Source: Candidatus Jorgensenbacteria bacterium (lineage in GTDB: Bacteria; Patescibacteriota; Minisyncoccia; UBA6257; GWB1-50-10). From it: a DNA stretch of 64,000 bases. Positions 3,925-63,762 of this stretch are shown piece by piece. Made by a program: the position numbers and the translations under genes. Where the stretch lies: positions 25,581 through 89,580 of the forward strand of contig JAZDFV010000002.1 in NCBI GenBank assembly GCA_043807585.1, in the 5' to 3' direction. The notes under the pieces were generated by a model. That model ran no database searches. It had not been told where the DNA came from and worked only from the letters and a program-made list of their open reading frames with translations. Each line of letters starts with the position of its first letter. Position 1 is the first letter of the stretch.

Positions 3925-4125
3925 ATGCGACAGTGCGTTTTTTGTTCCCAGAACGCGAAGACCATTGATTACCGGAGCGTGGACGTGCTCCGCCGTTTTG
4001 TTTCCGGCCAGGCAAAGATCATAGATCCGCGCCACACGGGGGTCTGCGCCAAGCACCAGCGGCGTCTCGCACGCGCGGTGAAGCGCGCGCGCATCATGGG
4101 GCTACTACCCTTCGTGCGCAGATAG
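3925..4125 (+). CDS. rpsR: 30S ribosomal protein S18
   Basis: The 66-aa S18 sequence includes [13 protein letters not shown]...[11 protein letters not shown]. Confidence 0.9.
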
Positions 4126-4236
4126 CTACGAAATACGAATTTTTTACGAATTTACGAAAACGATTTATAACAGTTTCGTATATTCGTATTATTTCGTATT
4201 TCGTAGCCCTTAGGTATTTTCATATTTCGTAGCGCT
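4126..4236. repeat. TACGAA/TTCGTA word-palindrome element (second copy)
   Basis: About 100 nt are near-identical to 2620-2750 (acgaat.tacgaaaacga...tttcgtatattcgtat..tttcgtatttcgtagccctt.ggta). Confidence 0.8.
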
Positions 4237-4822: not shown

Positions 4823-5101
4823 TTACACAAAAAACGACAGTAGCTTGAGTTTTATTTTTTCTACCTCGCTCGCGTCCAAATTGTCCGAAGCGTTGAGTTT
4901 CAGATCGCGGATGGCCCGCGCGGCCTCTTCTTTTGAAATACCCTCGGAGAGATAGCGGCCGAAAACCGCCTTCACATACTCCTGCTCCTCTGGGGAGAGC
5001 GCCGAAATCTGCCGGAGGAGCATATCAAGCTTCTCTCTTGAGAGGTGTTTCCCGCCGGAAGGCGAGAGAAAGTCAAAGATACCCATATCAATAAATATCA
5101 A
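4823..5101 (-). CDS. hypothetical small protein (92 aa), AT-rich
   Basis: It is an ORF in the AT-rich islet with no recognised domain. Confidence 0.4.
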   Translation of the reverse strand: MIFIDMGIFDFLSPSGGKHLSREKLDMLLRQISALSPEEQEYVKAVFGRYLSEGISKEEAARAIRDLKLNASDNLDASEVEKIKLKLLSFFV

Positions 5102-5141
5102 GTATTAAGAATCAAATGTCAAATATGTTGTAGGCATACTT

Positions 5142-5165
5142 TCTTATTCGCGCGAATAAGAAAGT
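5142..5165. promoter_or_regulatory. 24-bp perfect palindrome tttcttattcgcgcgaataagaaa (core ATTCGCGCGAAT)
   Basis: The palindrome is perfect, and the same core recurs at 19558 and 32978 upstream of genes. Confidence 0.5.
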
Positions 5166-5234
5166 ACGAGATTTTGAGAGATTGAGAAGCATAAAATAGG
5201 TAAATGCCGAACCACAAGTTTTTTCTTTGGATCG

Positions 5235-6281
5235 CTAAGCGTTCCTTTTATCCCGCTTAGCGGGAATGGCGGCAAATTCTTTCAAATATTTTTTGACCTT
5301 TCCAATAAATAAATCAATTAATAGTATAAAAATTATTAAAAGCAAAATTACCAATAGTTTATGCGTTACCCAAAAGGCATTGATATATATCCAAATATCA
5401 TAGAAAAATCTGTCAAACCAATTGTAATCAGGCGAGGGGAATCTTATTACTTCTTTATTAGCTTTATCGCCATTAACATCTACTTTGATATAGTGATAAA
5501 AATAATGGTCGGGGTCCGTTCCCATTAGTTCAGAACCAGCGCCGCCGGTAATAATATAATTTATTCCATTTTTTGTTTCATCGAAATAAGCATGAATATG
5601 GGAAGCAAAAACAGTATCAACTTTATACTTTTCCATTAAATTAATAAATTCTTGAGCATTCTGTTTGTCGGATAGGGAATGATTGGTGTTGGGACGGGGG
5701 TCAAAAGCTGGCACATGTAAAAAGACAAATTTATGTTGATAGTTTCTCTGCAATTGTTCCTCCAGCCATTTCATCTGCACCGCATCAATTCTTGTTTCAT
5801 TAGCATCGTCTAAGACAACGAATAAAGAATTGCCATAATCAAATGAATAATAAAATTTGCCAAAAATATCAAAATAGTTTTCTGCCCCGCCCTCTCGGAT
5901 ATCGTGATTGCCAACCGCGACCAAAAACGGTGTCTGCTCGTTTTTTATCATATTGTAAAAGATCCGGTATTTTGCTTTTTCACCGTCATACACCAAATCC
6001 CCAACATCAATGGCAAAAGTATAGTGGTTGTTGTCAATATCTTTCAGAATTTTACTAAATATTTTGAAGCTATTTTTATTATCGCCCATCACGGCAAAGC
6101 TGAAGTTGTCTGAAGGCGCGGAAGAATGAATTTTATCAATTTGTTTTTGATTATAATTGCCCGGGCCAACCGGCAAATAATCGTTTAGGCCAATGGTTAT
6201 TAGCAAAATAGCAATGACAACAACGGCAGCAATATGACGCTTTTTAGAGAAATATTTTTTAAAATTATCTTTTAATGACAT
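5235..6281 (-). CDS. membrane-anchored calcineurin-like metallophosphoesterase
   Basis: Phosphoesterase motifs GD, GDLVYDG, GNHD and ASHIH are present, with N- and C-terminal hydrophobic segments. The start was chosen at the internal Met (MSLKDN) because the longer ORF runs into the tRNA-like fragment. Confidence 0.7.
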   Translation of the reverse strand: MSLKDNFKKYFSKKRHIAAVVVIAILLITIGLNDYLPVGPGNYNQKQIDKIHSSAPSDNFSFAVMGDNKNSFKIFSKILKDIDNNHYTFAIDVGDLVYDGEKAKYRIFYNMIKNEQTPFLVAVGNHDIREGGAENYFDIFGKFYYSFDYGNSLFVVLDDANETRIDAVQMKWLEEQLQRNYQHKFVFLHVPAFDPRPNTNHSLSDKQNAQEFINLMEKYKVDTVFASHIHAYFDETKNGINYIITGGAGSELMGTDPDHYFYHYIKVDVNGDKANKEVIRFPSPDYNWFDRFFYDIWIYINAFWVTHKLLVILLLIIFILLIDLFIGKVKKYLKEFAAIPAKRDKRNA

Positions 6282-6317
6282 ATGTTTGTGGGACGCTGAG
6301 CGTCCCGATAACAACGC

Positions 6318-6354
6318 TAAGCGTTGTGCCCGGGGTGGGGGTCGAACCCACACG
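6318..6354 (-). other. degenerate tRNA 3'-half-like fragment (T-arm plus acceptor 3' strand)
   Basis: The minus-strand sequence GTGGG-TTCGACC-CCCAC-CCCGGGC-A looks like a tRNA 3' half. It shares gaacccacacgg with the fragment at 9046-9115. Confidence 0.5.
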
Positions 6355-6363
6355 GCCTTGCGA

Positions 6364-6630
6364 TCACAGGAGTTCTTCAAGCCGTTCGCGTTCCTCGTTG
6401 ATCAGTTCTTGCCATGTGAACGTGCTTTTCCCGCACAGAAATTCCCGCTTCATTTTTTGGTTGTTGTAGAAGAAATTTATCCACGCCCTGCCTTCGGTCG
6501 CGAGATTCACAAAATTTGCTAGCTCTTGGTCGTTCGCCCTGCTGAACAATCTCATCAATTCGCCTCGCTCGATCCCTCCAAGGGTCGAATTTCTTACAAT
6601 GGTTTCAAGTTTGTATAAGTTCGATTCCAT
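6364..6630 (-). CDS. hypothetical protein (88 aa), translationally coupled to the upstream large gene
   Basis: The ORF lies 5 nt after the stop of the 6636..9044 gene, and the region is AT-rich. Confidence 0.4.
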   Translation of the reverse strand: MESNLYKLETIVRNSTLGGIERGELMRLFSRANDQELANFVNLATEGRAWINFFYNNQKMKREFLCGKSTFTWQELINEERERLEELL

Positions 6631-6635
6631 GTTGG

Positions 6636-9044
6636 TTATTTTTCCGGCGATAGGATTTTGTTGTAGGCCTTGAGGAAAAGCACGCCAAGGTTTTTGTCCG
6701 GAGCGACGTAATTTTTGAAATCCTTGTTATTTTTGAAGAGGTTGCCCGCTTTAGCCCAAAGTTCCTGCCATTTTATATTCTTGCCGCTTCGTATCTCATT
6801 GTTGAGCATCTTGAGAAGCTGGTCATTCACCAATTTTACCCCAGTTCCTTTTGTCGAGATGATGTGAGCGTTCGGCGCGCGTTCGAGAACCGCTGCCATG
6901 TTGTTATACCCGCCGCACGAGCCGAGCGATACTATTTTTGCGATTGGAGGTATTCTCTCGATTGTTTTATGGGCGTGATAGCTGTGCCCGCGATGAACTA
7001 CCACGATTGTTTCTATATGTTTCTGCGCGAGAATCTCGTCTATCTTTTTTGGACCCTCGTCCTCATAACTTGGACGGTTCGCATATATTTCGACTTTCTT
7101 TCCGATTCCTTGGGAAACGATCCGCACGTATTCTTTTTTTGCTTCTATGCGCCATTCCGGACTGCCGGCATATTGTGAAAGAAAATTTTTGAACGACCCA
7201 TCGCCGTCTTTGTCGTTATAGAAAAAATATTGCTGGATGTTCGTTCCGTCTTTGTTGAAGAGGTCTTTTGAGGGGATTTCAGTTAGGTTCTGAAGTTTAT
7301 ATTTCTCCGACATTTCGTGTATCCATTCCTTGTTTGCTATAGCTTTCTCGCCAAACATGCCGCTCAAAAGTCCGTAGAGCGTTTTTCCCTCTTCGCTGTT
7401 TTCATTTTTTGCGCGTTCGTATTCGTCTTTGATTTTATCCTGAAACACTTCCAATATTTTTTTGTCTTTCACTATACCAAAGATTTCAGCGACGGTTGTG
7501 GCTTGCATGAGCTTATCTCCCTCTTTCTCTATATTAGAAATAGATCTTTCGAGGACGGTTTTACGCGCGGTTTCGTCCATAGTGTTCAAAAAATCATCCA
7601 ATCTGTTAAAACTAGCGCAGAGTTTTATCAATGTTCTGAATTTATTGTAGCCGTTTTGCTCAAGCAATTGATCGCCGGAGACGTGTTCACTTTTCATTTT
7701 CTCCACAAATCTATTGAACAAACCATTGAACGATGAGGTAAACAACTCCTCATCCCCATAGGTCATGAGAAGGTAGAGTTTCTGTGAAGAATGGTTTTCA
7801 ACCGATTTGAAACGCACGGGGTCCGTTGCTTCATGCAGGTCATTTATTTGCCTTACTTCTTTCAGCACCATCGTCTTTAGATATTTATCAGCTATTTCAC
7901 TTCCAAGGTGGTCCGGACGACTTTTAATCTCCATTAGTTTTTCTAGGAATTTTCCATCGTTTTTTGCGATATTGGCCGTTTCCTCAAGGCTCGTATTTTT
8001 TCTTACGATTTCATCGGTTAGTGCACACATTTTTTCTTGAATGTCGGGCGCGTATGTTGATTTTTTAATTTTTGACAATGTCTGTATGAACGGATCTTTG
8101 CTTTCGTTAAGTATTTTATTCACTTCTCTCTCAATGCCTTTTTCATTATCGATTGTATTGTACGGATCTATAATACCTTCTGGAAATTGCTTGATTGCAT
8201 GCTCAATCATTTCCCTTGCATCGGTAGCAGACGCAAGATTATCTGCGTGTCTTAAAACTGCCCACGGTTCAGTGAAAGCCACTCTCTCAACTATTTTCTT
8301 TCCCCACGGTGTGTTTACAAAATTCTCTGCATGGAAAATTATTGTTGGTGCAGTATTTATTTGCGTTGCCGCTTTTTCTAGAATTTTTTGCGCGTATGGT
8401 TGTGTAATAAAACGGTCTGCAAATTCAAAGGCACCCCAAGGGTCGAAATCTGCCGCTTTTTCTATTATTTTTTCTGCGTAGGGCTCATCTATAAAACGGT
8501 CGGCGAACTCAAGTACTAAGGAATGATTTGTTTTGATAGCTTGCTCTACAACTCGTTTGAGAATATCTTTTCCATTTGGGATGTTTTTATAGTTTTCCGC
8601 ATAACGGAGTGCGCCATAACATCTAGAATAGGGAGGGGGTTGGAATCGCTGCGGATCTAGCATCCCTGCACTCTCATTAACAGCTCCCTCAATGATTTTG
8701 TATGCCCATGGTTTGTACTCGTAGCTATCCGCGACCTCAAGCGCATCAATTGGTTGAAGTCTTGCTAATTCTGCGTACGCTTGTTCATCCAATGAACGTT
8801 TTCCTTCAATCTCCTGTTCGTGGAATCTTGTATATTTGCTGTGCGCAGATTCTGGCCGATCCCTCATCTCCACGATCGAGAGGGTGGTAATGAGGGTAAG
8901 CGCTTTAATGACCAAGCCGCTTTTTTCACGGATTCGCCCGAGTATCGTTTTCTCTTCGGTCTCCAACTTCTCAACGCCCTTTTCCGCGGCGTTTTCTTGA
9001 ATTTCGTTCCCTTCCGGTGAATCGTTTTGTTTTTCGAAATCCAT
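6636..9044 (-). CDS. large helical-repeat (HEAT/TPR-like) protein with a C-terminal putative CHAT (caspase-like) peptidase domain
   Basis: About 38-aa repeats (ADRFI..PYA.KI.EKAA.FDPWGAFE) are followed by a His/Cys dyad-like VVVHRGHSYH ... IVSLGSCGGYN. The start was chosen at MDFEKQN because the longer ORF overlaps tRNA-Leu. Confidence 0.6.
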   Translation of the reverse strand: MDFEKQNDSPEGNEIQENAAEKGVEKLETEEKTILGRIREKSGLVIKALTLITTLSIVEMRDRPESAHSKYTRFHEQEIEGKRSLDEQAYAELARLQPIDALEVADSYEYKPWAYKIIEGAVNESAGMLDPQRFQPPPYSRCYGALRYAENYKNIPNGKDILKRVVEQAIKTNHSLVLEFADRFIDEPYAEKIIEKAADFDPWGAFEFADRFITQPYAQKILEKAATQINTAPTIIFHAENFVNTPWGKKIVERVAFTEPWAVLRHADNLASATDAREMIEHAIKQFPEGIIDPYNTIDNEKGIEREVNKILNESKDPFIQTLSKIKKSTYAPDIQEKMCALTDEIVRKNTSLEETANIAKNDGKFLEKLMEIKSRPDHLGSEIADKYLKTMVLKEVRQINDLHEATDPVRFKSVENHSSQKLYLLMTYGDEELFTSSFNGLFNRFVEKMKSEHVSGDQLLEQNGYNKFRTLIKLCASFNRLDDFLNTMDETARKTVLERSISNIEKEGDKLMQATTVAEIFGIVKDKKILEVFQDKIKDEYERAKNENSEEGKTLYGLLSGMFGEKAIANKEWIHEMSEKYKLQNLTEIPSKDLFNKDGTNIQQYFFYNDKDGDGSFKNFLSQYAGSPEWRIEAKKEYVRIVSQGIGKKVEIYANRPSYEDEGPKKIDEILAQKHIETIVVVHRGHSYHAHKTIERIPPIAKIVSLGSCGGYNNMAAVLERAPNAHIISTKGTGVKLVNDQLLKMLNNEIRSGKNIKWQELWAKAGNLFKNNKDFKNYVAPDKNLGVLFLKAYNKILSPEK

Positions 9045-9045
9045 A

Positions 9046-9115
9046 TTTTGTGTGGTGCCCGAGGTGGGAATCCCAGCCTTCGCCTGACTACGGACGGGCA
9101 GGGAACCCACACGGT
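9046..9115 (-). other. tRNA-like 3'-end fragment abutting tRNA-Leu
   Basis: The minus-strand sequence ends ...GATTCCCACCTCGGGCACCA, which resembles the tRNA-Leu 3' end GATTCCCTCCTCGCCCA. It shares ccgtgtgggttc with the 6318-6354 fragment. Confidence 0.45.
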
Positions 9116-9197
9116 GTGGGCGAGGAGGGAATCGAACCCTCATGGGTTGCCCCACACGATTTTGAGTCGTGCGCGTATACCGTTCCGCCACTCGCCC
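9116..9197 (-). tRNA. tRNA-Leu (anticodon CAA)
   Basis: Manual fold: acceptor GGGCGAG/CTCGCCC, anticodon stem CACGA/TCGTG with loop CTCAAAA, a long variable arm and T-arm GAGGG-TTCGATT-CCCTC. Confidence 0.85.
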
Positions 9198-9343
9198 TCT
9201 CCTTTCGCGTTGATATTACCACAAAAATTCGGTACAGTAAATTAAACTATGGCTCGCGTAACCCTTCGACAGGCTCAGGGTTTCCAATCACAGAATCAAG
9301 TTTGTTCGGTATTTATGTGGAGAATCCAAATTTTATACAAAAC

Positions 9344-15128: not shown

Positions 15129-15589
15129 GGGACAGATGAGTTTATTTATCAAGGAGGGATTTGCGGGCGAAACCGACTAAAACCGCATCCATCCTCCTTC
15201 GCTCCAACTTTTCGTCGGAGTTTCGGAAGGACAAGCAGCCGCGCCCTCCTTGCCTTCGCTCAATCCTCGGCAGGTGGGCCTGCCCGTCCGAAGCTGCAGC
15301 GGAGGAGGGTCCGCCGCAGAAATTCAGGCAATTTATAACCCCGCTCAATAGAGCCATCCCTGCCTGCCGCCCGCCCGTCGCCTGCCTGCCGGTAGGCAGG
15401 GTCGGCAGGACAGGCAGGTACAACGCAGGCCAATAATTAATCAAGGCGTACTTGTGCACCGCTCATCTTTTGGAGGATTGCCCCAAGGGTGAGGAGGATC
15501 GGTTCCGACCTCGCCTCTTGACAAGTCAAGGTTCCTCCCTATACTTATCAATTGTGATTAGCAACAAAAGGTCGTTGGTGCTAACAACC

Positions 15590-15696: not shown

Positions 15697-15990
15697 ATGT
15701 TCAAACCACTCTCAAATAAAGTATTCATAGAGGCGGCGGAGGATGAGCAGCAGAAGACCAAGTCTGGTATCGTGCTCCCCGAGACCGCCGAGAAGGAGAA
15801 ATTTGTGAAAGGTTCCGTGGTCGCGGTGGGGCCGGGTAAGATGAACGACAAAGGTGAGCGCCTACCCATGGCGGTGAAGGTTGGCGACCGCGTCCTTTTC
15901 AAGAAACCCTGGTCGGGGGATGAGCTTGAGGCGGACGGGAAGAAGCTCTTGGTGGTGGATGAGGAGGATATACTCGCGATCGTAGAATGA
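15697..15990 (+). CDS. groES: co-chaperonin GroES
   Basis: The 97-aa ORF has a GroES sequence. Confidence 0.95.
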   Translation: MFKPLSNKVFIEAAEDEQQKTKSGIVLPETAEKEKFVKGSVVAVGPGKMNDKGERLPMAVKVGDRVLFKKPWSGDELEADGKKLLVVDEEDILAIVE

Positions 15991-16000
15991 TCGCGACAAG

Positions 16001-16127
16001 CACCAAATCCCAAGCACCAAATCCCAAATAAACTCCAATCGCTGAAATCTTGGTACAATAATTGAGACGGTTTTGAATTTGGAATTTGAGATTTATTTGT
16101 AATTTGGAATTTGTGGTTTGGAATTTC
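16001..16127. repeat. CCAAAT/ATTTGG word-palindrome element (copy upstream of groEL)
   Basis: caccaaatcccaagcaccaaatcccaaat ... ttggaatttgagatttatttgtaatttggaatttgtggtttggaatttc; the same family occurs at 50641 and 56311. Confidence 0.75.
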
Positions 16128-16135
16128 AACTAATT

Positions 16136-17761
16136 ATGGCCAAAGAAATTAAATTCAACGAAGAGGCCCGCGTGGCCTTGAAGAAAGGCATTGATAAGCT
16201 TGCCGAGGCGGTCCGGATGACCCTGGGTCCGCGCGGCCGCGCGGTGGTCATAGAGAAGGGCTATGGCGCCCCGCAGGTGACCTTTGACGGTGTTACGGTG
16301 GCGAAGGAGATAGAGCTTGAAGGGAAGTACGAGAACCTCGGCGCAGAGTTCATCAAGCAGGCTGCCGAGAAAACGAACGACACGGTGGGAGATGGCACCT
16401 CGACGGCGGTGGTGTTGGCCCACGCGATGATAGAGGAGGGAGAAAAAGCCATCCGCGAGAAGGGGTTCAACGTCATCCACCTTGCGGAGGAGATCCGGAG
16501 GGCGAGCGAGAAGATCGTGAAATACCTCAACGAGCATAAAGAACCGATCAACGACAATAAGAAGGTGGAGGAGGTAGCGACCCTCTCCGCGAAGGATGCG
16601 GAGATAGGGAAGCTCATCGCCGAGGTGATGGCGAAGGTCGGCAAGGAGGGCGTGGTCTCGGTGGAGGATTCCAACACCATCGGGAATTCTTACGATATGG
16701 TGGAGGGACTCCAATTCGACCGCGGCTACATTTCACCCTACATGATCACCAACCAGGAGCGCATGGAGGCGGTCTTGGAAGACCCCTACATTCTCCTCAC
16801 GGATAAGAAAATTTCTTCCATCAACGATCTTCTGCCACTCCTGGAGAAGATCGTGACGAGCGGCAAGAAAGAGCTCCTCATCATCGCCGACGAGGTGGAG
16901 GGTGAAGCGCTCGCCACGCTCGTGGTGAACAAACTCCGCGGCGTCTTCAGCGTTTTGGCGGTGAAGGCACCCGGTTTCGGCGACCGGAAGAAAGAAATGC
17001 TTCAGGATATCGCCATTGTGACCGGTGCGACGTTCGTTTCGGAAGATCTCGGGAAGAAACTTGAGAATGTGAGCGTGGCGGAACTCGGCCACGCGCACCG
17101 CGTGGCGGCGACCAAGGACAATACCACCATCGTGGGCGGCAAAGGCGACAAAAAGCAAATCGAGGACCGCATCGCTCAGATCAAGACGCAGGTGAAGAAG
17201 ACCGACTCCGAGTTTGACAAGGAGAAATTGCAGGAGCGGCTGGGGAAGCTCGCGGGAGGTGTCGCGGTCATCAAGGTGGGTGCGCCTACGGAATCCGCCC
17301 AGAAAGAATTGAAGCAGAGGGTTGAGGACGCGGTAGCGGCGACCCGCGCGGCGATGGAGGAAGGTATTGTGCCGGGCGGCGGAATCGCGCTTTTCAACGC
17401 CACGAGTGCCCTGGCGGCCGGTTCTGGGGAGGCTCCGTCGGTTGAGGCGGAACTCATCCTCCGGAGGACATTGGAGGCGCCGCTCAAGGCGATTATCGCT
17501 AACAGCGGAGAATCACCGGATGGTATGATCCTGGAAATCAGGAAGCAGAATCCGAAGAACCCCTGGGTTGGCTTCAACGCGATGACGAACGCGATCGGAG
17601 ACCTCAAGGAGGCCGGTATCATTGATCCCCTGAAGGTGGTGAAGACAGCATTCGTAAACGCCGTTTCAGTTGCCGCGAACTACCTTACTATCGGCGCCGC
17701 TATCACCGAGATTCCGAAGAGGGAACCGCCCCCGCCGCCCGGCGGAATGGGGGAGTACTGA
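16136..17761 (+). CDS. groEL: chaperonin GroEL
   Basis: It is a full-length GroEL whose C-terminus is PPPPPGGMGEY. Confidence 0.95.
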   Translation: MAKEIKFNEEARVALKKGIDKLAEAVRMTLGPRGRAVVIEKGYGAPQVTFDGVTVAKEIELEGKYENLGAEFIKQAAEKTNDTVGDGTSTAVVLAHAMIEEGEKAIREKGFNVIHLAEEIRRASEKIVKYLNEHKEPINDNKKVEEVATLSAKDAEIGKLIAEVMAKVGKEGVVSVEDSNTIGNSYDMVEGLQFDRGYISPYMITNQERMEAVLEDPYILLTDKKISSINDLLPLLEKIVTSGKKELLIIADEVEGEALATLVVNKLRGVFSVLAVKAPGFGDRKKEMLQDIAIVTGATFVSEDLGKKLENVSVAELGHAHRVAATKDNTTIVGGKGDKKQIEDRIAQIKTQVKKTDSEFDKEKLQERLGKLAGGVAVIKVGAPTESAQKELKQRVEDAVAATRAAMEEGIVPGGGIALFNATSALAAGSGEAPSVEAELILRRTLEAPLKAIIANSGESPDGMILEIRKQNPKNPWVGFNAMTNAIGDLKEAGIIDPLKVVKTAFVNAVSVAANYLTIGAAITEIPKREPPPPPGGMGEY

Positions 17762-25440: not shown

Positions 25441-25518
25441 GTACACCCCGTTAGAGACAAGCCGCCCCTTGGCGGCTGTAGCCCCGCCTTTGGCATGGCG
25501 GTCTCTAACGGGGTACAC
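25441..25518. repeat. CCGTTAG-TIR element copy B
   Basis: gtacaccccgttagagac ... gtctctaacggggtacac is a perfect 18-bp TIR. Confidence 0.8.
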
Positions 25519-25529
25519 TGGGAAGTGCC

Positions 25530-27281
25530 ATGGCCACTTCCACCGACGTTGACCGCATCAAGGAAAAACTGAATATCGTTGATTTCATCCGCGGTTACCT
25601 CACCCTCCTGCCGGCGGGGAAGAATTTCAAGGCGCTCTGTCCGTTCCACCCCGAGAAGACCCCCTCGTTCATCGTCTCGCCGGACCGGCAGCGGTTCCAC
25701 TGCTTCGGGTGCGCCGCGGACGGGGACCTCGTCACGTTCCTCATGCGTTACGAGAATCTGGAGTTCCCGGAGGCGCTCCGCGTCCTCGCCGAGAAGGCCG
25801 GCGTTCCGCTCCAGACGCTCTCGCCGCGGGAGCAGCGCGAGTTCGGGGTGCTCTACGACATCCACGAGAAGGCGAAGGAATTTTTTCAACAGACGCTCCG
25901 CGAGCACGGGGCGGCGCAGGCGTATCTCAAAAACCGTGGCTTGAAGGGAGAAACCGCGGCGGCGTTCGAGCTGGGATTCGCGCCTGGCGGTGAATCGCTC
26001 ACCGTGCACCTCATCAACCAGGGGTTTGACGTGGGCGATATCGTGCGCGCGGGGCTCTCGCACAAGAACACCGCGGGGCTCTACCGCGACCGGTTCATTA
26101 ATCGCATCATCTTTCCCATCATGAATAGTGTGGGGAAGACAGTGGCGTTCACGGGGCGGTTATTGCCGTTGTCCTCCGAAGCTTTAGCGAAGGATGGAGA
26201 GGGTGCTGCGGGGGAGGGTACGGACGCGCCAAAGTATTTAAATAGTCCCGAGACGCCAATTTTCAACAAATCAAAGATCCTCTATGGGTTCCACCTGACC
26301 AAGAACGACATCGCGAAGGCGCGGAATGCCCTCTTCGTAGAGGGGCAGATGGATCTCTTGATGGCGTGGCAGGCCGGTGTGAAGAACGTGGTCGCGGTCT
26401 CGGGCACGGCGCTTACCCCGTTCCATTTGGAGAAGCTCCGGCGGCTCGCCGAAACGATGATCTTGAGCTTTGACAGCGACGAGGCGGGCATACATGCGCT
26501 TGAGCGGAGTTTGGACCTTTTGAACAACTTTGATTTTCACGTGAAGGTGGTGGATTTGGGCGGGTTCAAGGACCCGGCCGAGGCGGCGGAGAAGGATCCG
26601 GGGTTCCTCGCGGGCGCGGTGGCCTCCGCCACGTCGGCATTCTCGCACCTCTTTGCACATTACTTTCCGCGCGACAATGCGGGAGCCCGCGAGCTCACGG
26701 AGACGAAGCGCATCGTCCGGAATATTTTGCAGAGGATAAGGCGCTTGAAGAGCGCCACCGAGCAAACCGCATGGATCAAGGACCTCGCAAAATACTCCGG
26801 AATCTCGGAGGTGATGCTTCTCCAGGAACTCTCGTCGCTCCCCGCGCCATCTGCCGGGAGCACGGGCGCACCCGAGGAAGCTGTCGGCGAAAAACCGAAA
26901 CTCACGGACCGCGCTGACGTTCTCGCGGAGCGCCTCCTCGGGCTCGCCTTTACAAACGGCGATTTTTTGGCTACACTGCGGGAAAAGGGGTCGTGGTTAC
27001 CGGCACGCTACCAGACGGTGCTCGGCGAACCCGATGGAGAAGCGGGAGCCGCGTTGCAGATGCAGGCGAGTTATCTCTCGGCCCAGCTTTCCCCCGACCG
27101 TATTGCAAAGGAGTTCAGCGATCTGATCCGCCAGCTCGAGATCTCGGTGCTCGAGCGGGAACAGCGGGAACTCAAAGGAACCATTCAGAAGGCGGAGGGA
27201 GCCGGTGACGAAAAAACGCTTACCCGCGCCGCAGAACGTTTTCATTCACTTGCGAAGAGGATCGACGAATTGAAGCTGTAG
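25530..27281 (+). CDS. dnaG: DNA primase
   Basis: A zinc ribbon ([11 protein letters not shown]...HCFGC) and TOPRIM (EGQMDLL) are present. Confidence 0.9.
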
Positions 27282-31090: not shown

Positions 31091-32890
31091 ATGTCTGAAT
31101 CAGAAACAATAGTTTGTCAGAATTGTCATAGTTCCTTCGTCATTGAATCGGAGGATTTTACGTTCTACGAGAAAATAAAAGTCCCGCCGCCGACGTGGTG
31201 CCCGGAGTGCGACAGTGCAAAGAGAATGACTTGGAGAAACGAGAGATCTTTGTATTGGCGCGATTGCGGTTTGTGCGGTAAGAAAACACTCTCGATGTAT
31301 TCAAAAGAAAATCCTTTTACTGTTTATTGTCATAAATGTTGGATATCGGATAAGTGGGACTCATTAGTATTCGGGAGAGATTATGATTTTCAGAAAGATT
31401 TTTTCACGCAATTTTCAGAACTCCAAAAAAGCGTACCCCGCGCCTCGGTTCTCCAATATGGGACCAGTGTAAATTGCGAATTTACAAACTACACCAGAAA
31501 CACAAAAAATGTCCTCCTAGCCTATTCGGTTTCTACCGGTGAAAATATATATTATTCATTCACTGTAGATTGGTCTAAAGACGCGTTGGATTCTTTAATG
31601 TTGAAGAATTCCGAATTGATATTTGAAGGATTTAATTCGGATCATTGTTATAATTCTCAATTTCTCGTAGATTGCCGCGATTGCACCGAATCATCGTATT
31701 TGTATGATTGTGTGAACTGCCAGAATTGTTTTATGTCGGTGAACCTTAGAAACAAACAGTTCGTTTTTTATGGAAGACAGCTTTCGAAAGAAGAATATAG
31801 CAAAGCAATTTTAGAAATTGATATCGGAAGTTTTGAGACGAGGGGAAGATTAAAAGAAGAATTTCATAATGTTATTTTGCAAACAATTCATAAGTATGGA
31901 GATGTAGTTAAGGTTGTTAACTGCACCGGCAACTATCTTTCGAATTGCAAAAACGTGAAAAATTCATATAGCGTGTATGATTCCGAGAACGTAAGAAACA
32001 CCATTCGCGCCTTGAAAGCGAGAGACATCAGGAGTGTTTTTAGCTGCGGAGAAGGGAGCGAACTTATTTATAGCGGGATTGTCGGTGGCAAAACCAGTTC
32101 TAATATAAAATTTTTTGCAAGTGCGGATGTGCTACGCGAATCGCAATACACCGATTGGTGTTTAAGTTCATCAAATCTCTTCGGCTGCATCGGCCTTCGC
32201 AACAAGCAGTACTGCATCCTTAACAAGCAATACACGAAGGAGGAATATGAAGCCCTTGTACCCCGCATCATCGACCACATGAACACCATGCCCTATGTAG
32301 ATACCAAGGGCAGGATATACAAATATGGCGAGTTCTTCCCCCCGGAATTGTCTCCCTTCGCCTACAACGAAACCATCGCACAGGAGTATTTCCCCCTGAC
32401 CAAGGATAAAGCTATTCAACAGGGCTACCGCTGGAGGGACGCGGATACGAGAGATTACAAAATAACCAAGAGACCGGAGGATCTCCCCGACCACATCAAA
32501 GATGTAGAGGATGCAATATTGAAAGAAACCATCCAATGCATGCACCACCCTTCGGCAGGCTCAGGGCAGGCCGCCTGCAATCACCAATGCACCACCGCCT
32601 TCAAGGTTATCCCAGAAGAACTTGCCTTCTACCGCAGAATGAACCTCCCGCTCCCACGTCTTTGCCCCAACTGCCGGCACTACGAACGCCTAAAGCAGCG
32701 GAATCCCCTGAAGCTCTGGCACCGCACCTGCCAGTGTGCGGGAGGAAAAAGCGAGAACGGTGTCTACGAGAACACCATAACCCACCCACACGGCACCGGC
32801 CACTGCCTAAACGAATTCGAGACCAGTTACGCTCCAGAGAGAAAGGAAATCGTGTACTGCGAGAGTTGTTATAATACTGAAGTGGTATGA
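31091..32890 (+). CDS. Cys-rich protein (599 aa) with homologous N- and C-terminal double zinc-ribbon modules flanking internal Cys/Asn-rich repeats
   Basis: Multiple CxxC pairs are present. The termini are related (F.I..E..FY......P..CP.C ... LW.R.C), and there is an internal repeat (CFMSVNLRNKQFVFYGRQLSKEEYSKA / CIGLRNKQYCILNKQYTKEEYEAL). Confidence 0.7.
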   Translation: MSESETIVCQNCHSSFVIESEDFTFYEKIKVPPPTWCPECDSAKRMTWRNERSLYWRDCGLCGKKTLSMYSKENPFTVYCHKCWISDKWDSLVFGRDYDFQKDFFTQFSELQKSVPRASVLQYGTSVNCEFTNYTRNTKNVLLAYSVSTGENIYYSFTVDWSKDALDSLMLKNSELIFEGFNSDHCYNSQFLVDCRDCTESSYLYDCVNCQNCFMSVNLRNKQFVFYGRQLSKEEYSKAILEIDIGSFETRGRLKEEFHNVILQTIHKYGDVVKVVNCTGNYLSNCKNVKNSYSVYDSENVRNTIRALKARDIRSVFSCGEGSELIYSGIVGGKTSSNIKFFASADVLRESQYTDWCLSSSNLFGCIGLRNKQYCILNKQYTKEEYEALVPRIIDHMNTMPYVDTKGRIYKYGEFFPPELSPFAYNETIAQEYFPLTKDKAIQQGYRWRDADTRDYKITKRPEDLPDHIKDVEDAILKETIQCMHHPSAGSGQAACNHQCTTAFKVIPEELAFYRRMNLPLPRLCPNCRHYERLKQRNPLKLWHRTCQCAGGKSENGVYENTITHPHGTGHCLNEFETSYAPERKEIVYCESCYNTEVV

Positions 32891-37918: not shown

Positions 37919-39403
37919 ATGTCAAGTACTAAGAAAAGGGTATTCATTGCGATGTCCCCGAAGCAATCCCTTCGGGATGCTACGGGGCAGGCCGGCGGCG
38001 TGAAGCGGCCGAGGGTTTTTGTTGCGATGAGTGGGGGCGTGGATTCCTCCGTCGCGGCATTGCTGTTGAAAAAAGCCGGCTACGATTGCGTGGGCGTTTT
38101 TATGAAATGCTGGAGTGGAAACGGCCCCTCGGCATCGCTCGGGGCAAGTTGCGCGGAGCGGGATGCGGAGGATGCGCGGCGGGTCGCGGAACATATCGGC
38201 ATACCGTTCTACGTCTTTGATTTTGAGGAGGAATACAAAAAGCGGGTGGTGGAATATATGGTGGAGGGCTACCGCGCTGGTATTACGCCCAACCCTGACG
38301 TGATGTGCAACCGGGAGATAAAGTTCGGGCTGTTCTTGAAACGGGCGCTCGCGCTCGGGGCGGATTATGTGGCGACGGGGCACTACGTCCGTCTGCGGCG
38401 GAATGATGAATTTAGAATTTCTAATTTTGAATCAATTTCTAATTCCAGAATTAACAATTCAAACATTCAATCAAAATTCAAAATTGAGAATTCAAAATTT
38501 GGTCTTTTTCAGGCGAAGGACTTGAATAAAGACCAAAGTTATTTTTTATGGACATTGACCCAGAAGCAACTAAAATACTGCCTTTTCCCCATCGGTGATT
38601 ATCTGAAGTCCGAGGTGCGCGAAATTGCACGGAAGGCGGGGCTCCCCACCGCGGAGAAAAAGGACTCGCAGGGCATCTGTTTCCTGGGCGATGTCCCACT
38701 CAAGGACTTTTTGAAGCAGTATTTGCCGGAGCGGGAGGGGCCAGTGGTGCTTGCCCTGAGCGGAGCCGAAGGGACGGTGTATAAGAAAATAGGGGAGCAT
38801 GAGGGGGCGCATTTCTACACTATCGGTCAGCGCCACGGATTTTTGGTGCAAATGGCAAAGGGCTCCGATGGCAGAGCCATCGCGAGTCCACGACAAAGTC
38901 GGGACAAAGGGCAAAGCAAGGGAGAAACTAAGCCGCACTACATAGCGGCGAAGGATGTCGCAACAAATACGCTTATAGTTGCCGAAGGGAGTGATCACCC
39001 GTCGCTCTTTCAAAGAGAGGTCTCATTAACCGACATCAATTTCATCAATCCACATTCATTAGAAATTGGAAATTGTCTCGCTACGCGAGATCCCGCGAAG
39101 CGGGAGAAATTGGAAATTCCCGTGCTCGCACGGGTGCGGTACCGCCAGCCGCTCTTTGAAGCGACGCTGATTTACTCTGATGGGGAGCGGATAAATGCTG
39201 ATGGAAATCCGTATAAATCAGTTTCAAAATCCGCATCAATCCGCATAGTTTTCAAAAACCCTCAAAAATTCGTCGCTCCCGGCCAGTCCGCGGTGTTTTA
39301 TTTACCCGCCCGTAGCGGTGCGAAGGCGGGCTTGCCCGTCCGAAGCTCGGCGAAGGAGGGTCGCGAGGAGCTTGAAATGTTGGGTGGCGGAATGATTTTG
39401 TAA
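37919..39403 (+). CDS. mnmA: tRNA 2-thiouridine synthase MnmA carrying three in-frame repeat-derived insertions
   Basis: A PP-loop (SGGVDSS) is present, and the ORF is about 130 aa longer than typical MnmA. Insertions sit at 38401-38505 (AT word-palindrome), about 38870-38945, and 39073-39106 (palindromic repeat), and a repeat-derived C-terminal tail follows from about 39325. Confidence 0.85.
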   Translation: MSSTKKRVFIAMSPKQSLRDATGQAGGVKRPRVFVAMSGGVDSSVAALLLKKAGYDCVGVFMKCWSGNGPSASLGASCAERDAEDARRVAEHIGIPFYVFDFEEEYKKRVVEYMVEGYRAGITPNPDVMCNREIKFGLFLKRALALGADYVATGHYVRLRRNDEFRISNFESISNSRINNSNIQSKFKIENSKFGLFQAKDLNKDQSYFLWTLTQKQLKYCLFPIGDYLKSEVREIARKAGLPTAEKKDSQGICFLGDVPLKDFLKQYLPEREGPVVLALSGAEGTVYKKIGEHEGAHFYTIGQRHGFLVQMAKGSDGRAIASPRQSRDKGQSKGETKPHYIAAKDVATNTLIVAEGSDHPSLFQREVSLTDINFINPHSLEIGNCLATRDPAKREKLEIPVLARVRYRQPLFEATLIYSDGERINADGNPYKSVSKSASIRIVFKNPQKFVAPGQSAVFYLPARSGAKAGLPVRSSAKEGREELEMLGGGMIL

Positions 39404-55878: not shown

Positions 55879-56310
55879 AAAATCACGTGCAAAAAAGTGA
55901 AGATGACCCAGGTCTGGAAAACAGACCGCGTGGTGCCGGTCACGGTACTCAAGGTGGAACCATCCGCAAGCGAAGGGATATTCGACGCGCTCAAAGAAGG
56001 GGCGCGTGTTCGTGTTTCCGGCGTGAGCAAAGGAAAGGGATTCCAAGGCGTGGTGAAGCGGCACGGGTTCCACGGCGGCCCCAAGTCCCACGGCCAGAAG
56101 GATCGTCTCCGCGCACCGGGCTCGATCGGTCCCACCGCCCCGCAGCGGGTGCTCCCCGGGCGGAAGATGGCAGGCCACATGGGGGCGCGGAAAGTCACGG
56201 TGCGGAATCTTGTGGTGGCGGAGGTGCACCCCGAGGAACGGTTGGTGTTCGTGCGTGGAGCGGTGCCGGGGGCGCGCGGTACTAAAGTAGAAATGAGAAC
56301 CGCAGAGTAG
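55876..56310 (+). CDS. rplC: 50S ribosomal protein L3 (short form)
   Basis: It is an L3 sequence shortened to 144 aa (KKVKMTQVW...[14 protein letters not shown]). Confidence 0.9.
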
Positions 56311-56462
56311 AAAATTGAAATTTGAGTCCAACCCATAAAAATTCCAAATGACAAATTCCAAATCTCAAATAATATCCAATAGCCTAAATTCCAAACTTTT
56401 CGGAGGTTGGTATTTGAGATTTGGTATTTATTTGTTATTTGGTGCTTGGAATTTGAGATTTC
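56311..56462. repeat. CCAAAT/ATTTGG word-palindrome element (copy upstream of rplD)
   Basis: aaattccaaatgacaaattccaaatctcaaat ... ggtatttgagatttggtatttatttgttatttggtgcttggaatttgagatttc. Confidence 0.75.
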
Positions 56463-56469
56463 TAAACTT

Positions 56470-57093: not shown

Positions 57094-57124
57094 TTTTTCA
57101 TGATCATGAATCCCGTTAGAGACA

Positions 57125-57235
57125 ACTAAGATACCTACCTATGCAACTCCATATTTATAAACACAAAACATTAATTAGCAGCGAAAGGGCCGTGGCTATT
57201 ACGGTCGCCTATGGCGACCTGTCTCTAACGGGATG
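57125..57235. repeat. CCGTTAG-TIR element copy E whose right TIR contains the rplW start codon
   Basis: catgaatcccgttagagaca ... tgtctctaacgggATGaaa. Confidence 0.8.
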
Positions 57236-57604
57236 AAACTCTTCTCCCGAACCAAAAAAGAGGAAAAGAAGCCGGCGGTGACTGCGGCGCCCGCGGCACC
57301 GGCATTGCGCGGCGAGCACGCCCAGCCGCTCGAAGGGTTTTCCCCGGTCCAGCGCCCCTATGTGAGTGAGAAGACGCACGGGCTCGAGCGACACCGCGCG
57401 TACGCGTTCCTGATAAACCCTTCAGCGAACAAGGAGATGATTAAGCGGTATGTGGAGGAGCGTTATAAAGTGAACGTGGAACACGTGAACATCACCAGCA
57501 TTGCCTCAAAGGCAAAGCAGTTCCGGGGGCGCGTCCATCACGTCGGCAAGCGGAAAAAGGCCATCGTGCGGGTCCGCGAGGGACAGCGTATAGAAATTTC
57601 GTAA
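57233..57604 (+). CDS. rplW: 50S ribosomal protein L23 (N-terminally extended)
   Basis: An L23 core follows an Ala/Pro-rich N-terminal stretch of about 30 aa. Confidence 0.9.
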   Translation: MKLFSRTKKEEKKPAVTAAPAAPALRGEHAQPLEGFSPVQRPYVSEKTHGLERHRAYAFLINPSANKEMIKRYVEERYKVNVEHVNITSIASKAKQFRGRVHHVGKRKKAIVRVREGQRIEIS

Positions 57605-57650: not shown

Positions 57651-57687
57651 CTCGACTGAGCTCGGCCGAACGTCCCACAAAACCTTA

Positions 57688-57790
57688 CCCAGCACATAAA
57701 AGTATGAAAACATCAACCAATCTTAAAGTAATTACTTCTCGATTGAACGATTTGTACCAAGAAAGTCGCTTGGTTACTTTTATGTGCTGG
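57688..57790. repeat. CAGCACATAAA-TIR element R1 (about 103 nt, TIR cccagcacataaaagta / tacttttatgtgctggg)
   Basis: There are six copies in the r-protein operon spacers (57688, 59087, 60742, 61355, 62013 and 63592). R1, R2 and R4 are near-identical. Confidence 0.85.
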
Positions 57791-57852
57791 GTGCTCAAAT
57801 TTTCAGCAAAATTTAGCATCGCCTTCGGCTCGCAAATTTTGGTAAATTTGGC

Positions 57853-59030: not shown

Positions 59031-59086
59031 GGGCTTTGTCTAAAATTACAAGACGAAATCGCAGGAATTTTAGCAACAAAACCTTA

Positions 59087-59190
59087 CCCAGCACATAAAA
59101 GTATGAAAACATCAACCAATCTTAAAGTAATTACTTCTCGATTGAACGATTTGTACCAAGAAAGTCGCTTGGTTACTTTTATGTGCCGGG
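59087..59190. repeat. CAGCACATAAA-TIR element R2
   Basis: It is near-identical to R1. Its right flank, gtggacattcggctgagctcagtcgaagccctcg, is shared with R6 and, in inverse orientation, with the R1 left flank. Confidence 0.85.
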
Positions 59191-59820: not shown

Positions 59821-59871
59821 GTTTGTCTGAAATTTGAAGATGAAATCGCACAAATTTCAGCAACAAACCGT

Positions 59872-59980
59872 GACCCCGTTAGATAGCGGTAATAATATGA
59901 AATTTCAATACAAAAATGGAGTATTAGGGATAACAATCGTCGAACCACTCCGAGCGGGTCCGTCCGCATCTAACGGGGTG
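59872..59980. repeat. CCGTTAG-TIR element copy G (between rplV and rpsC)
   Basis: gaccccgttagatagcggtaa ... ccgcatctaacggggtg. Confidence 0.8.
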
Positions 59981-60039
59981 CTCAAATTTATGGCGGAATA
60001 TGACTTCGCCTTCGGCTCGTAAATTTCGATAAATTTGGC

Positions 60040-60720: not shown

Positions 60721-60741
60721 TGAGCGTCGGTTTTTCGAGAA

Positions 60742-60845
60742 CCCAGCACATAAAAGTATGAAAATATCAACTGATTTTAAATTAATTATTTCTGTGTCAA
60801 ATGGCTTGTACCAAGAAGGTCGCTTGGTTACTTTTACGTGCTGGG
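60742..60845. repeat. CAGCACATAAA-TIR element R3
   Basis: It is a family copy with a diverged interior. Confidence 0.8.
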
Positions 60846-60887
60846 TGCGCAATTTTATGATTTCGCTGCCGCTCAAATAAAATTGGC

Positions 60888-61298: not shown

Positions 61299-61354
61299 GG
61301 GCTTGGTATGGATTTTCAAGCCGCAGGCGCAGAAAATACATGAACCAAACCTTA

Positions 61355-61458
61355 CCCAGCACATAAAAGTATGAAAACATCAACCAATCTTAAAGCAATT
61401 ACTTCTCGATTGAACGATTTGTACCAAGGAGGTCGCTTGGTTACTTCTATGTGCTGGG
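61355..61458. repeat. CAGCACATAAA-TIR element R4
   Basis: It is near-identical to R1 and R2. Confidence 0.85.
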
Positions 61459-61519
61459 TGCTCGGTTTTATAGCTAAATTTCCGTCGCGTGCTCGCTTGG
61501 AAATTTAGATAAAAACAGC

Positions 61520-61991: not shown

Positions 61992-62012
61992 TTTTTGGCT
62001 ACCAAACAACAA

Positions 62013-62116
62013 CCCTGCACATAAATTTATGAACACGGTTTTCAACCAAAAAATGAATAAGATATCGGTCAATCGCTCTGGTTATCGAAAGCGTACGGTT
62101 AAATTTATGTGCGGGG
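62013..62116. repeat. CAGCACATAAA-TIR element R5 (diverged: ccctgcacataaatttatg ... aaatttatgtgcgggg)
   Basis: The TIRs are related and the interior differs. Confidence 0.7.
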
Positions 62117-62186
62117 TGCTCATTGTGGTAGCTGAATATTCTTCGCTACGCAGTGAGCTTCGCTTGAATATTCAGACCACAATGGC

Positions 62187-62559: not shown

Positions 62560-62700
62560 CAAAACTATAAATTCATGCGAATCTACAAATATGATACGAA
62601 TATATCCGCATAAATCCGTTTCAATCCGCATAAATCCGTGTTTAGTAAATCAGCGTAAATCAGCGTCCAATAAATCAGCATCAATCCGCGTGTTTAGTAA
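62560..62700. repeat. direct-repeat word array upstream of rplX (ccgcataaatccg x2, aaatcagcgt x2, gtgtttagtaaa x2)
   Basis: Direct repeats of several words are present rather than an inverted arrangement. Confidence 0.6.
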
Positions 62701-63548: not shown

Positions 63549-63591
63549 CGAAGTCAAGGCGGGCGGGTAGGATTTTTCAACACCAAACCTT

Positions 63592-63676
63592 CACCGAGCA
63601 CATAAAGCATTATGTTATGAATATGAAGAACAAACACCACGAGGTTGCGCAACCAAGTTCCTTTATGTGCTCGGTG
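63592..63676. repeat. CAGCACATAAA-TIR element R6 (diverged)
   Basis: caccgagcacataaagcat ... ctttatgtgctcggtg is followed by the shared flank gacattcggctgagctcagtcgaagccctcg. Confidence 0.7.
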
Positions 63677-63762
63677 GACATTCGGCTGAGCTCAGTCGAA
63701 GCCCTCGATTCCGTAGATAAATTTTCATCGTCCGCTAACTCGAAAATTTATACATAATCGGC

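Follow-up and report, generated by a model that had tools for sequence, protein, structure and literature searches.

Heptad-armed hairpins inside the groESL, str and S10 operons of a Candidatus Jorgensenbacteria genome are probably gene-less, non-autonomous copies of a palindromic selfish family

The DNA analyzed here, referred to as the window, is a stretch of 64,000 nucleotides of contig JAZDFV010000002.1 from Candidatus Jorgensenbacteria assembly GCA_043807585.1, and it contains three hairpins with CCAAAT/ATTTGG heptad arms, none of which is assigned a strand. Element 1 (16003–16128) lies between groES (15697–15990, plus strand, Pfam Cpn10) and groEL (16136–17761, plus strand, Pfam Cpn60_TCP1), with its left arm at about 16003–16039 and its right arm at about 16071–16128, starting 12 nt past the groES stop codon and ending 7 nt before the groEL ATG. 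Element 2 (50640–50772) separates rpsG, encoding S7 (50174–50641, plus strand), from fusA, encoding EF-G (50779–52914, plus strand), both assigned with Pfam; its left arm starts inside the rpsG stop codon (TGA, 50639–50641) and its right arm stops 6 nt short of the fusA ATG (50779). Element 3 (56324–56463, core arms 56339–56394 and 56407–56463) lies between rplC, encoding a short 144-aa form of L3 (55876–56310, plus strand), and rplD, encoding L4 (56470–57093, plus strand), again assigned with Pfam; its core left arm starts 28 nt past the rplC stop codon and the element ends 6 nt before the rplD ATG (56470). In all three copies the gap from stop codon to hairpin is 0–12 nt, measured by the predicted hairpin start, and the gap from hairpin to ATG is 6–7 nt. 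A preliminary description had placed three related elements upstream of groEL, fusA and rplD, and the hairpins, the shared arm pattern and the Pfam neighbors agree with its positions. The word upstream is correct in that the elements directly precede these genes, but they are placed between cistrons and are internal to operons. A sigma-70-like promoter site is found 5' of groES (TTGACA-16-TATACT, 15518–15545, plus strand, 11/12), so that groEL is an internal cistron, and a second one 5' of rpsL (TTGACT-16-TGnTATACT, 49490–49517, plus strand, 10/12), so that the same applies to fusA; both sites are consensus matches only. The consensus scan found no sigma-70-like promoter inside elements 1 and 2, and in element 3 only weak 9/12 matches, which are at chance level for AT-rich DNA.

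The three elements are 125–140 nt long and have a GC content of 29–35%, compared with about 55% for the window. Each is predicted to form a single long interrupted RNA hairpin, in which short helical blocks are split by symmetric internal loops of 1–3 nt, at 16003–16121 (−30.9 kcal/mol, z −1.8), 50640–50771 (−37.6 kcal/mol, z −4.7) and 56324–56461 (−41.5 kcal/mol, z −5.0). The inverted-repeat arms are 74–78% complementary and show a period of 7/14 nt on both sides in every copy (Tandem Repeats Finder, TRF). The arm units are degenerate, CCAAATN on the left and NATTTGG on the right, and the inner stem is less repetitive (CAATGACCAAAA / TTTTGGTCATTG). The right-arm pattern TTTGTWATTTGGNNNTTGNNNTTTG is matched exactly in all three elements, and with up to three mismatches it occurs 10 times in the window, always within the three elements, compared with 0.01 matches expected; together with the arm and fold evidence this indicates that the repeat is real and not a product of chance. 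The homology previously proposed for the three is borne out by this common word and by a mean column identity of 70% in their alignment. No open reading frame (ORF) was found in the loops. Rfam scans gave only tRNA and large subunit (LSU) rRNA matches at gathering score, with no family for the element, and by E-value only chance microRNA-like matches, with no ribosomal-protein leader or other family. A long hairpin directly past a stop codon, followed in element 2 by TTTTT directly 3' of it, resembles an intrinsic terminator or attenuator that would set the ratio of the upstream to the downstream cistron. However, elements 1, 2 and 3 all lack a terminator-like site in the terminator scan, the stems are AU-rich and contain internal loops, and termination before groEL, fusA or rplD would harm the cell, making such a role extremely improbable.

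Metagenome contigs were scanned with the right-arm pattern, yielding at least 120 loci, about 77 of which have the complementary left arm. These loci share sequence beyond the pattern itself (GTTTTGGTCATTGRATATTGGAATTTGAGATTT|pattern|GGAATTT) and lie in contigs ranging from 26 to 67% GC. A covariance model, R1, was built from 26 copies. The three window elements are in its seed and therefore match by construction, with 105, 117–121 and 123 bits for elements 1, 2 and 3, respectively; their membership is independently backed because the alignment to the metagenome copies extends beyond the search pattern. Only these three score in the window, the next best matches being other hairpins and an insert in mnmA (E 0.07–0.2). 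In the fetched loci, which total 713 kb, R1 has 198 matches, corresponding to about 100 elements, on both strands, and family copies score 100–148 bits. Element sizes are bimodal, with copies of approximately 100–300 nt that have no ORF and copies of 445–560 nt that have an ORF in the loop. Copies outside the seed are found in genomes with a taxonomic label, with three more in a Candidatus Jorgensenbacteria metagenome-assembled genome (MAG; L001), two in a Colwellbacteria MAG and further ones in other Patescibacteria and in five Nitrospirota MAGs. In the Nitrospirota locus L054 the copy lies between rplO and secY, 5 nt past the rplO stop codon and 7 nt before the secY ATG. A few copies are on viral contigs. 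The occurrence of the family across hosts, together with its turnover between close genomes, upholds the earlier suggestion that such sequences spread.

At least 10 of the long copies carry a loop gene of about 120 aa that matches TIGR02436 ("four helix bundle protein") and PF05635 ("23S rRNA-intervening sequence protein"), and these copies share their arms with the ORF-less members of the family. Locus L147 holds a truncated 76-aa remnant of the loop protein, which looks like an intermediate toward the ORF-less forms. Bacterial LSU rRNA genes contain six of the R1 matches: L184 has one, L138 three and L196 two. As L138 is a near-identical mirror image of L196, four of these rRNA-borne copies are non-redundant. 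The L184 copy lies about 145 nt from the LSU 5' end and its flanks pair like a helix stem, placing it on a helix tip. Being inside 23S rRNA genes, the rRNA-borne copies are classical intervening sequences (IVSs). IVSs have been described as selfish elements that are bordered by a stem, occupy helices 9, 25 and 45, are excised by RNase III and in some cases have a four-helix-bundle ORF (PMC4990558). In rRNA genes of the candidate phyla radiation (CPR), numerous short inserts with no ORF have been reported at IVS sites, along with 23S_rRNA_IVP ORFs (PMC11270868); protein-coding genes are not mentioned anywhere in the text of that paper. The window elements resemble the IVSs with an S23p ORF (Leptospira, Coxiella; PF05635) in their complementary arms and long stem, in a sporadic distribution suggesting horizontal spread, in having full-length family members with the same loop protein family and in having homologous members inside 23S rRNA genes. 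They differ in being located in mRNA between protein-coding cistrons instead of in rRNA, in lacking the ORF and in the arms of the family, which are arrays of heptads whose consensus is conserved between phyla; RNase III excision is assumed for them by analogy. A single 23S rRNA gene, in L138, has family copies at 46–203, 1560–1713 and 2475–2628, and its first 1800 model positions include about 1 kb of additional sequence.

The three window elements thus belong to a family with ORF-bearing and rRNA-borne relatives, have complementary arms and sit inside operons, and they are probably ORF-less, non-autonomous copies of a palindromic selfish family of the type represented by IVSs and by the short tandemly repeated repetitive (STRR) elements of cyanobacteria, inserted into short intercistronic gaps. 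The copies would have entered stop-to-start spacers that were at first very short, in the groESL, str and S10 operons, and, judging from their position, would be co-transcribed with the operon. The RNA is expected to fold into an interrupted AU-rich stem of about 45–50 bp that draws the upstream stop codon near the downstream start codon, and the element may be tolerated because it folds away. RNase III possibly trims it, as it does the rRNA IVSs. The effect on expression would be neutral or modest, acting through segment stability and preserved translational coupling. The four-helix-bundle protein encoded in the loop of the long copies is the obvious candidate helper for movement.

Comparison with close relatives shows that the elements come and go. 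Across 23 Patescibacteria loci the junctions concerned are usually 0–15 nt long, with sporadic expansions of 100–2000 nt. The groES|groEL spacers of relatives whose GroES is 90, 83 and 82% identical to that of the window are 36, 4 and 85 nt long, respectively, and do not contain such an element. A look-up for the exact window GroES returned no record. L001 is the nearest labeled genome, with an L4 that is 81% identical and genes that are about 78–96% identical at the DNA level, most of them 78–88%. Its rpsG|fusA junction contains a different element with TACGAAT arms, and its family copies at rpsL|rpsG, tuf|rpsJ and rpsC|rplP are at junctions that hold other elements in the window; in total its 17-kb locus has four family copies. 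The ortholog of element 3 lies at 8553–8682 of L001, between rplC and rplD and 6 nt before the ATG, and is decayed: of the inner-stem pairs, 11 are broken and gaps have removed another 11 (−28.6 compared with −44.1 kcal/mol). In the 36-nt spacer, that of L216, a mini-hairpin is present (TCACCAATTACGCGAATGGTGA), each arm of which has a single CACCAAT-like unit. This mini-hairpin, the tandem 7-nt arrays that make up the arms and the variation of the heptad units by lineage with arm complementarity kept could be taken to mean that the elements grew in situ, a small prior hairpin having gained units from a heptad seed on each arm through slippage and expansion, with no transposition. We consider this improbable, since the inner, non-repetitive segments and the order of heptad variants recur in copies from unrelated hosts, R1 scores range from 100 to 148 bits and the ORF-bearing versions have the same arms.

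The genes next to the elements were compared across the family (n=46), giving 37 co-directional, 6 convergent and 3 divergent contexts. The 45 downstream genes are heterogeneous and include sigma-54 activators, dehydrogenases, DNA polymerases and transporters, and no ribosomal or chaperonin family is present among the 25 most frequent of 75 matched families. In the window, 3 of about 20 junctions of translation and chaperone genes have a copy, whereas none of the approximately 45 others does (post hoc, p about 0.03); a local association with highly transcribed operons is real in the window lineage. The preliminary description had proposed an element that enhances expression from upstream, and a promoter or UP-like AT-rich tract serving highly expressed genes would fit the position of all three window copies before genes for abundant proteins, the AT-richness of the elements in a 55% GC genome and the weak 9/12 matches in element 3. 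Against this stand the operon-internal position with good promoter-like sites farther upstream, the palindromic, orientation-free sequence, the copies inside rRNA genes and around an ORF, the relatives that have no element and the heterogeneous downstream genes with few divergent contexts, and we regard the proposal as very improbable. An association with promoters or high expression likewise does not hold for the family as a whole, given the same heterogeneity and the 3 divergent contexts in 46. The alternative of a structured 5' untranslated region (UTR), raised alongside it, holds only trivially, in that the transcript is expected to fold at these places.

In the family alignment 90% of cells in pairing positions are paired and 17/25 pairs are changed on both sides, a value as high as this being found in 0/500 shuffles, with slid controls reaching at most 58%; this alignment, larger than that of the 26 copies, is fitted to R1, leans toward the model and contains both strands of each palindrome. 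RNAalifold on the 26 copies gives a stem that is backed by conservation, with one compensatory pair only. A Shine-Dalgarno (SD)-like motif (GGAG/GAGG/AGGA/AAGG in the 20 nt before the start codon) is found in 4/39 confident window genes, so few that translation in the window organism seems to be initiated largely without SD pairing; groEL, fusA and rplD have none, which is typical for window genes. AATTTGG near start codons was considered as a genome-wide ribosome-binding motif and rejected, being confined to repeat cassettes. The scarcity of SD-like motifs and the tight spacing to the stop codon and ATG in 3/3 window copies, which is similar in L001 and L054, would suit an intercistronic RNA that benefits the host by stabilizing mRNA segments, by transcript processing or by bridging stop and start codons for reinitiation in an SD-poor genome. 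The rplC|rplD copy in common with L001, the similar position of copies in four Nitrospirota MAGs (junction checked in L054) and the clustering of copies in translation and chaperone operons of the window lineage, with four in 17 kb of L001, point the same way. Similar roles, in transcript stability or translational coupling, have been proposed for the cyanobacterial STRR hairpins between hupS and hupL, whose function is unknown (PMC2670836). On the other hand, the spacing to stop and start follows trivially from insertion into a spacer of 4–15 nt, groES|groEL in close relatives has no such element, decay has affected the inner stem of the L001 ortholog, the sense strand has no advantage and the neighboring genes are unrelated across the family. 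A host-beneficial RNA is therefore an unlikely, though not negligible, explanation for the elements.

Several results weigh against their interpretation as selfish, non-autonomous inserts. The window contains no four-helix-bundle (PF05635) gene. No target-site duplication was found at the elements and no exactly matching or alignable empty site, the groES|groEL spacers being too diverged, and transposition is for this reason not demonstrated. Four Nitrospirota MAGs hold a copy at about the same position of the locus, the junction having been checked only in L054, and the rplC|rplD copy is common to the window and L001; some copies therefore persist for long, which a purely neutral parasite need not do. 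Identity among the window copies is 74%, compared with up to 81% to copies in unrelated contigs. That window copies are as close to copies in unrelated hosts as to each other points, at the sequence level, to transfer or to a strongly constrained consensus. Stability of the predicted fold shows no bias to the sense strand (21 versus 17 of 38 oriented copies, p=0.31) and R1 scores the palindromes on both strands, with no fixed orientation to transcription, so that selection on the RNA is not separable from upkeep of a DNA palindrome. No RNase III signature motif was found in the window, in a scan that is uninformative over 64 kb.

The selfish family proposed here may be compared with other bacterial repeats. 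Like STRR sequences, it has 7-nt tandem units forming hairpins and an intercistronic position, and heptad inverted arms around four-helix-bundle genes are found on plasmids of Nostoc, Planktothrix, Euhalothece and Anabaena. It differs in its host, Patescibacteria (CPR) as opposed to heterocyst-forming cyanobacteria, and in its dominant unit; the heptamer TTGGTCA occurs only once, in the inner stem of the family. An STRR is reported, by Vioque in 1997, to have inserted into a helix of a structural RNA, the RNase P RNA. No paper linking STRR to IVS proteins was found in the literature, and a paper on TAACTGA heptamer repeats in Beggiatoaceae mentions neither IVS proteins nor such hairpins. Enterobacterial repetitive intergenic consensus (ERIC) sequences, Correia (nemis) elements and repetitive extragenic palindromes (REPs) with their bacterial interspersed mosaic elements (BIMEs) are also imperfect palindromes of about 100–150 nt in transcribed intergenic regions, multi-copy and present or absent between strains. 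Some of these repeats serve as substrates of RNase III or RNase E and affect how stable the mRNA is. REPs offer a further parallel in an ORF-bearing "master" flanked by repeats, the REP-associated tyrosine transposase (RAYT), which recalls the ORF-bearing copies of the present family. All of them differ from it in sequence, to which no similarity is found, and the window family has no transposase and no signature of terminal inverted repeats or target-site duplication that could be found, has heptad-array arms and has copies in rRNA genes. Compared with miniature inverted-repeat transposable elements, the whole element is an inverted repeat, with no direct duplication seen at its ends and no alignable empty site, and its ORF-bearing relatives encode a four-helix-bundle protein as opposed to a known transposase. 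The loop ORF belongs to PF05635, a family resembling the accessory protein Avd of diversity-generating retroelements (PMC10053308), which makes the loop protein a candidate helper that handles nucleic acid. Here the differences are that no reverse transcriptase and no template or variable repeats adjoin the elements and that no such ORF is in the window.

Hairpins with other heptad units extend the comparison. In the window TACGAAT units are found at 2594–2738, 4122–4210 and 53030–53140 and TCCGAAT units in the groES leader. At the rpsG|fusA junction of L001 (1402–1856) TACGAAT arms bracket a 134-aa GxxExxY / PD-(D/E)XK nuclease ORF, and the additional R1 matches in this genome keep the inner stem of the family with both arms made of CGAAAT or TCTAAT units. 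A homologous GxxExxY nuclease ORF is seen in the str operon region of the Harrisonbacteria locus L015 (4668–5084). Complementary flanks, which place a copy at the apex of another hairpin, are found for about 10% of copies compared with 1% expected, the window copies not being among them; in L094, L103, L173, L198 and L083 copies are nested in this way at the apex of a second hairpin built of other heptads (TACTCCA, GCATAGA, AATTAGG). Searches with tblastn located four-helix-bundle genes on cyanobacterial and Bacteroidota plasmids, from Nostoc, Planktothrix, Euhalothece, Anabaena, Pseudanabaena, Bernardetia and Chondrinema. These seven genes are mostly flanked by heptad inverted arms of other units, with repeats only upstream in Pseudanabaena and arms of mixed ATTTACG and CCCAAAT units in Planktothrix, and in 5/7 cases they lie between co-directional genes, for example RND (resistance-nodulation-division) adaptor|permease and cas2|cas1. 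Cyanobacterial STRR repeats have this same architecture. A blastn comparison of an ORF-bearing element with the plasmids gave no match. The gene between cas2 and cas1 is that of Anabaena cylindrica pANACY.01 (L220), with GTAAAAA heptad arrays around it, and the gene of the Pseudanabaena plasmid (L224) adjoins cas1. We put forward as a tentative possibility that heptad-armed hairpins with a loop gene for an Avd-like protein or a GxxExxY nuclease form an unrecognized mobile class that would home, in transcribed DNA of different phyla, to the tips of hairpins and to short gaps between cistrons. A single mechanism might then account for 23S IVSs, STRR arrays and the unusually long spacers, filled with hairpins, in ribosomal-protein operons of CPR bacteria, and in genomes lacking Shine-Dalgarno sequences the ORF-less copies might have been recruited for processing or coupling.

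The preliminary description had also noted a related array within mnmA, and an in-frame heptad palindrome is present there at about 38402–38503 (plus strand, residues ~162–195). The insert is AT-rich, 74% complementary and has a 7-nt period with TCAAAAT as the unit (TRF), and, measured against solved MnmA structures, it contributes about 22–25 extra residues. It does not clearly belong to the CCAAAT family, however, since it scores 20 bits against the covariance model (E 0.077), like unrelated hairpins. Its best local alignment to family members scores 40, compared with 26 ± 3.4 for shuffles (z~4). The TCAAAAT heptad is the arm unit (TTCAAAA) around the Nostoc plasmid four-helix-bundle gene. 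The mnmA insert is thus of the same architectural class as the three elements, with only a weak sequence relation to the CCAAAT family. The mnmA gene (37919–39403) has four lineage-specific inserts relative to solved structures, at residues ~162–195, 311–330, 376–392 and 420–436; the last of these (nt ~39191–39250) contains AAATCCGCAT-like words that are repeated in the rplN|rplX spacer (62590–62700).

The assignment of the window elements to this family replaces a regulatory guess by a testable identity and brings one kind of hairpin together in three settings, as an rRNA IVS, as the carrier of an Avd-like gene and as bare intergenic inserts in essential operons of the ultra-small CPR bacteria. 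IVSs and cyanobacterial STRRs have been known since about 1990, with no agreed function or mode of spread, and a sequence-defined family that comes with and without an ORF, occupies both rRNA and mRNA sites and has filled as well as empty junctions among close relatives offers concrete material for experiments. In practical terms, such AT-rich inserts can mislead promoter and UTR prediction and break assemblies. In L054 the hairpin is followed directly by a stretch of N and a secY start that is duplicated (9170–9300), where the element probably broke or confused the assembly.

Other hairpins fill much of the ribosomal-protein operons in the window, where the spacers between 57093 and 64000 are mostly 140–250 nt long and nearly all occupied by hairpins, opposite to most bacteria, whose ribosomal-protein operons are compact; of the other co-directional spacers in the window, many are shorter than 80 nt. 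A second repeat family has six copies (57681–57795, 59083–59190, 60740–60848, 61350–61460, 62012–62125 and 63583–63685), one per S10/spc operon spacer, each a hairpin of about 110 nt (ACCCAGCACATAAAAG...CTTTTATGTGCTGGGTG). It is part of a cassette in which the stop codon is followed by GGGCTTTGT and a small hairpin, the big hairpin, and GCTC with a hairpin ending AAATTTGGC ATG. Its outer stem shows compensatory changes (CCCAG/CTGGG to CCGAG/CTCGG), and it has no Rfam match. A third hairpin family with CCCGTTAGA...TCTAACGGG stems lies at 49998–50110, 55752–55878, 57106–57236, 59868–59982 and ~25500–25530, two of its copies ending exactly at a start codon (tctaacggg ATG; rplC and rplW). It is also found upstream of rplD in L005 and L006, similar stems are present at rplC|rplD in distant Patescibacteria, and in L001 an rplD|rplW copy lies one junction further along.

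The ribosomal protein L3 encoded at 55876–56310 looks complete at 144 aa, with an N-terminal KKVKMTQVW motif, which suggests a shortened L3 in the window lineage; the possibility that rplC was split by an insert was rejected on the grounds that the 144-aa L3 is complete. The preceding rpsJ|rplC spacer (54860–55875) is 1016 nt long and contains a low-GC (37%) ORF for a Trp-rich protein of 161 aa (55061–55546) that has no Pfam or NCBIfam match, near-perfect palindromes at 54951–55000 (96%) and 54998–55037 (100%), and a GC-rich terminator-like hairpin at 54911–54930. Two blocks of the window, 5055–9200 and 31091–32000, have a GC content of 36–44%, compared with 55% elsewhere, and may be acquired DNA; long ORFs in these blocks are located at 5235–6380 and 6636–9191 on the minus strand and at 31091–32890 on the plus strand.

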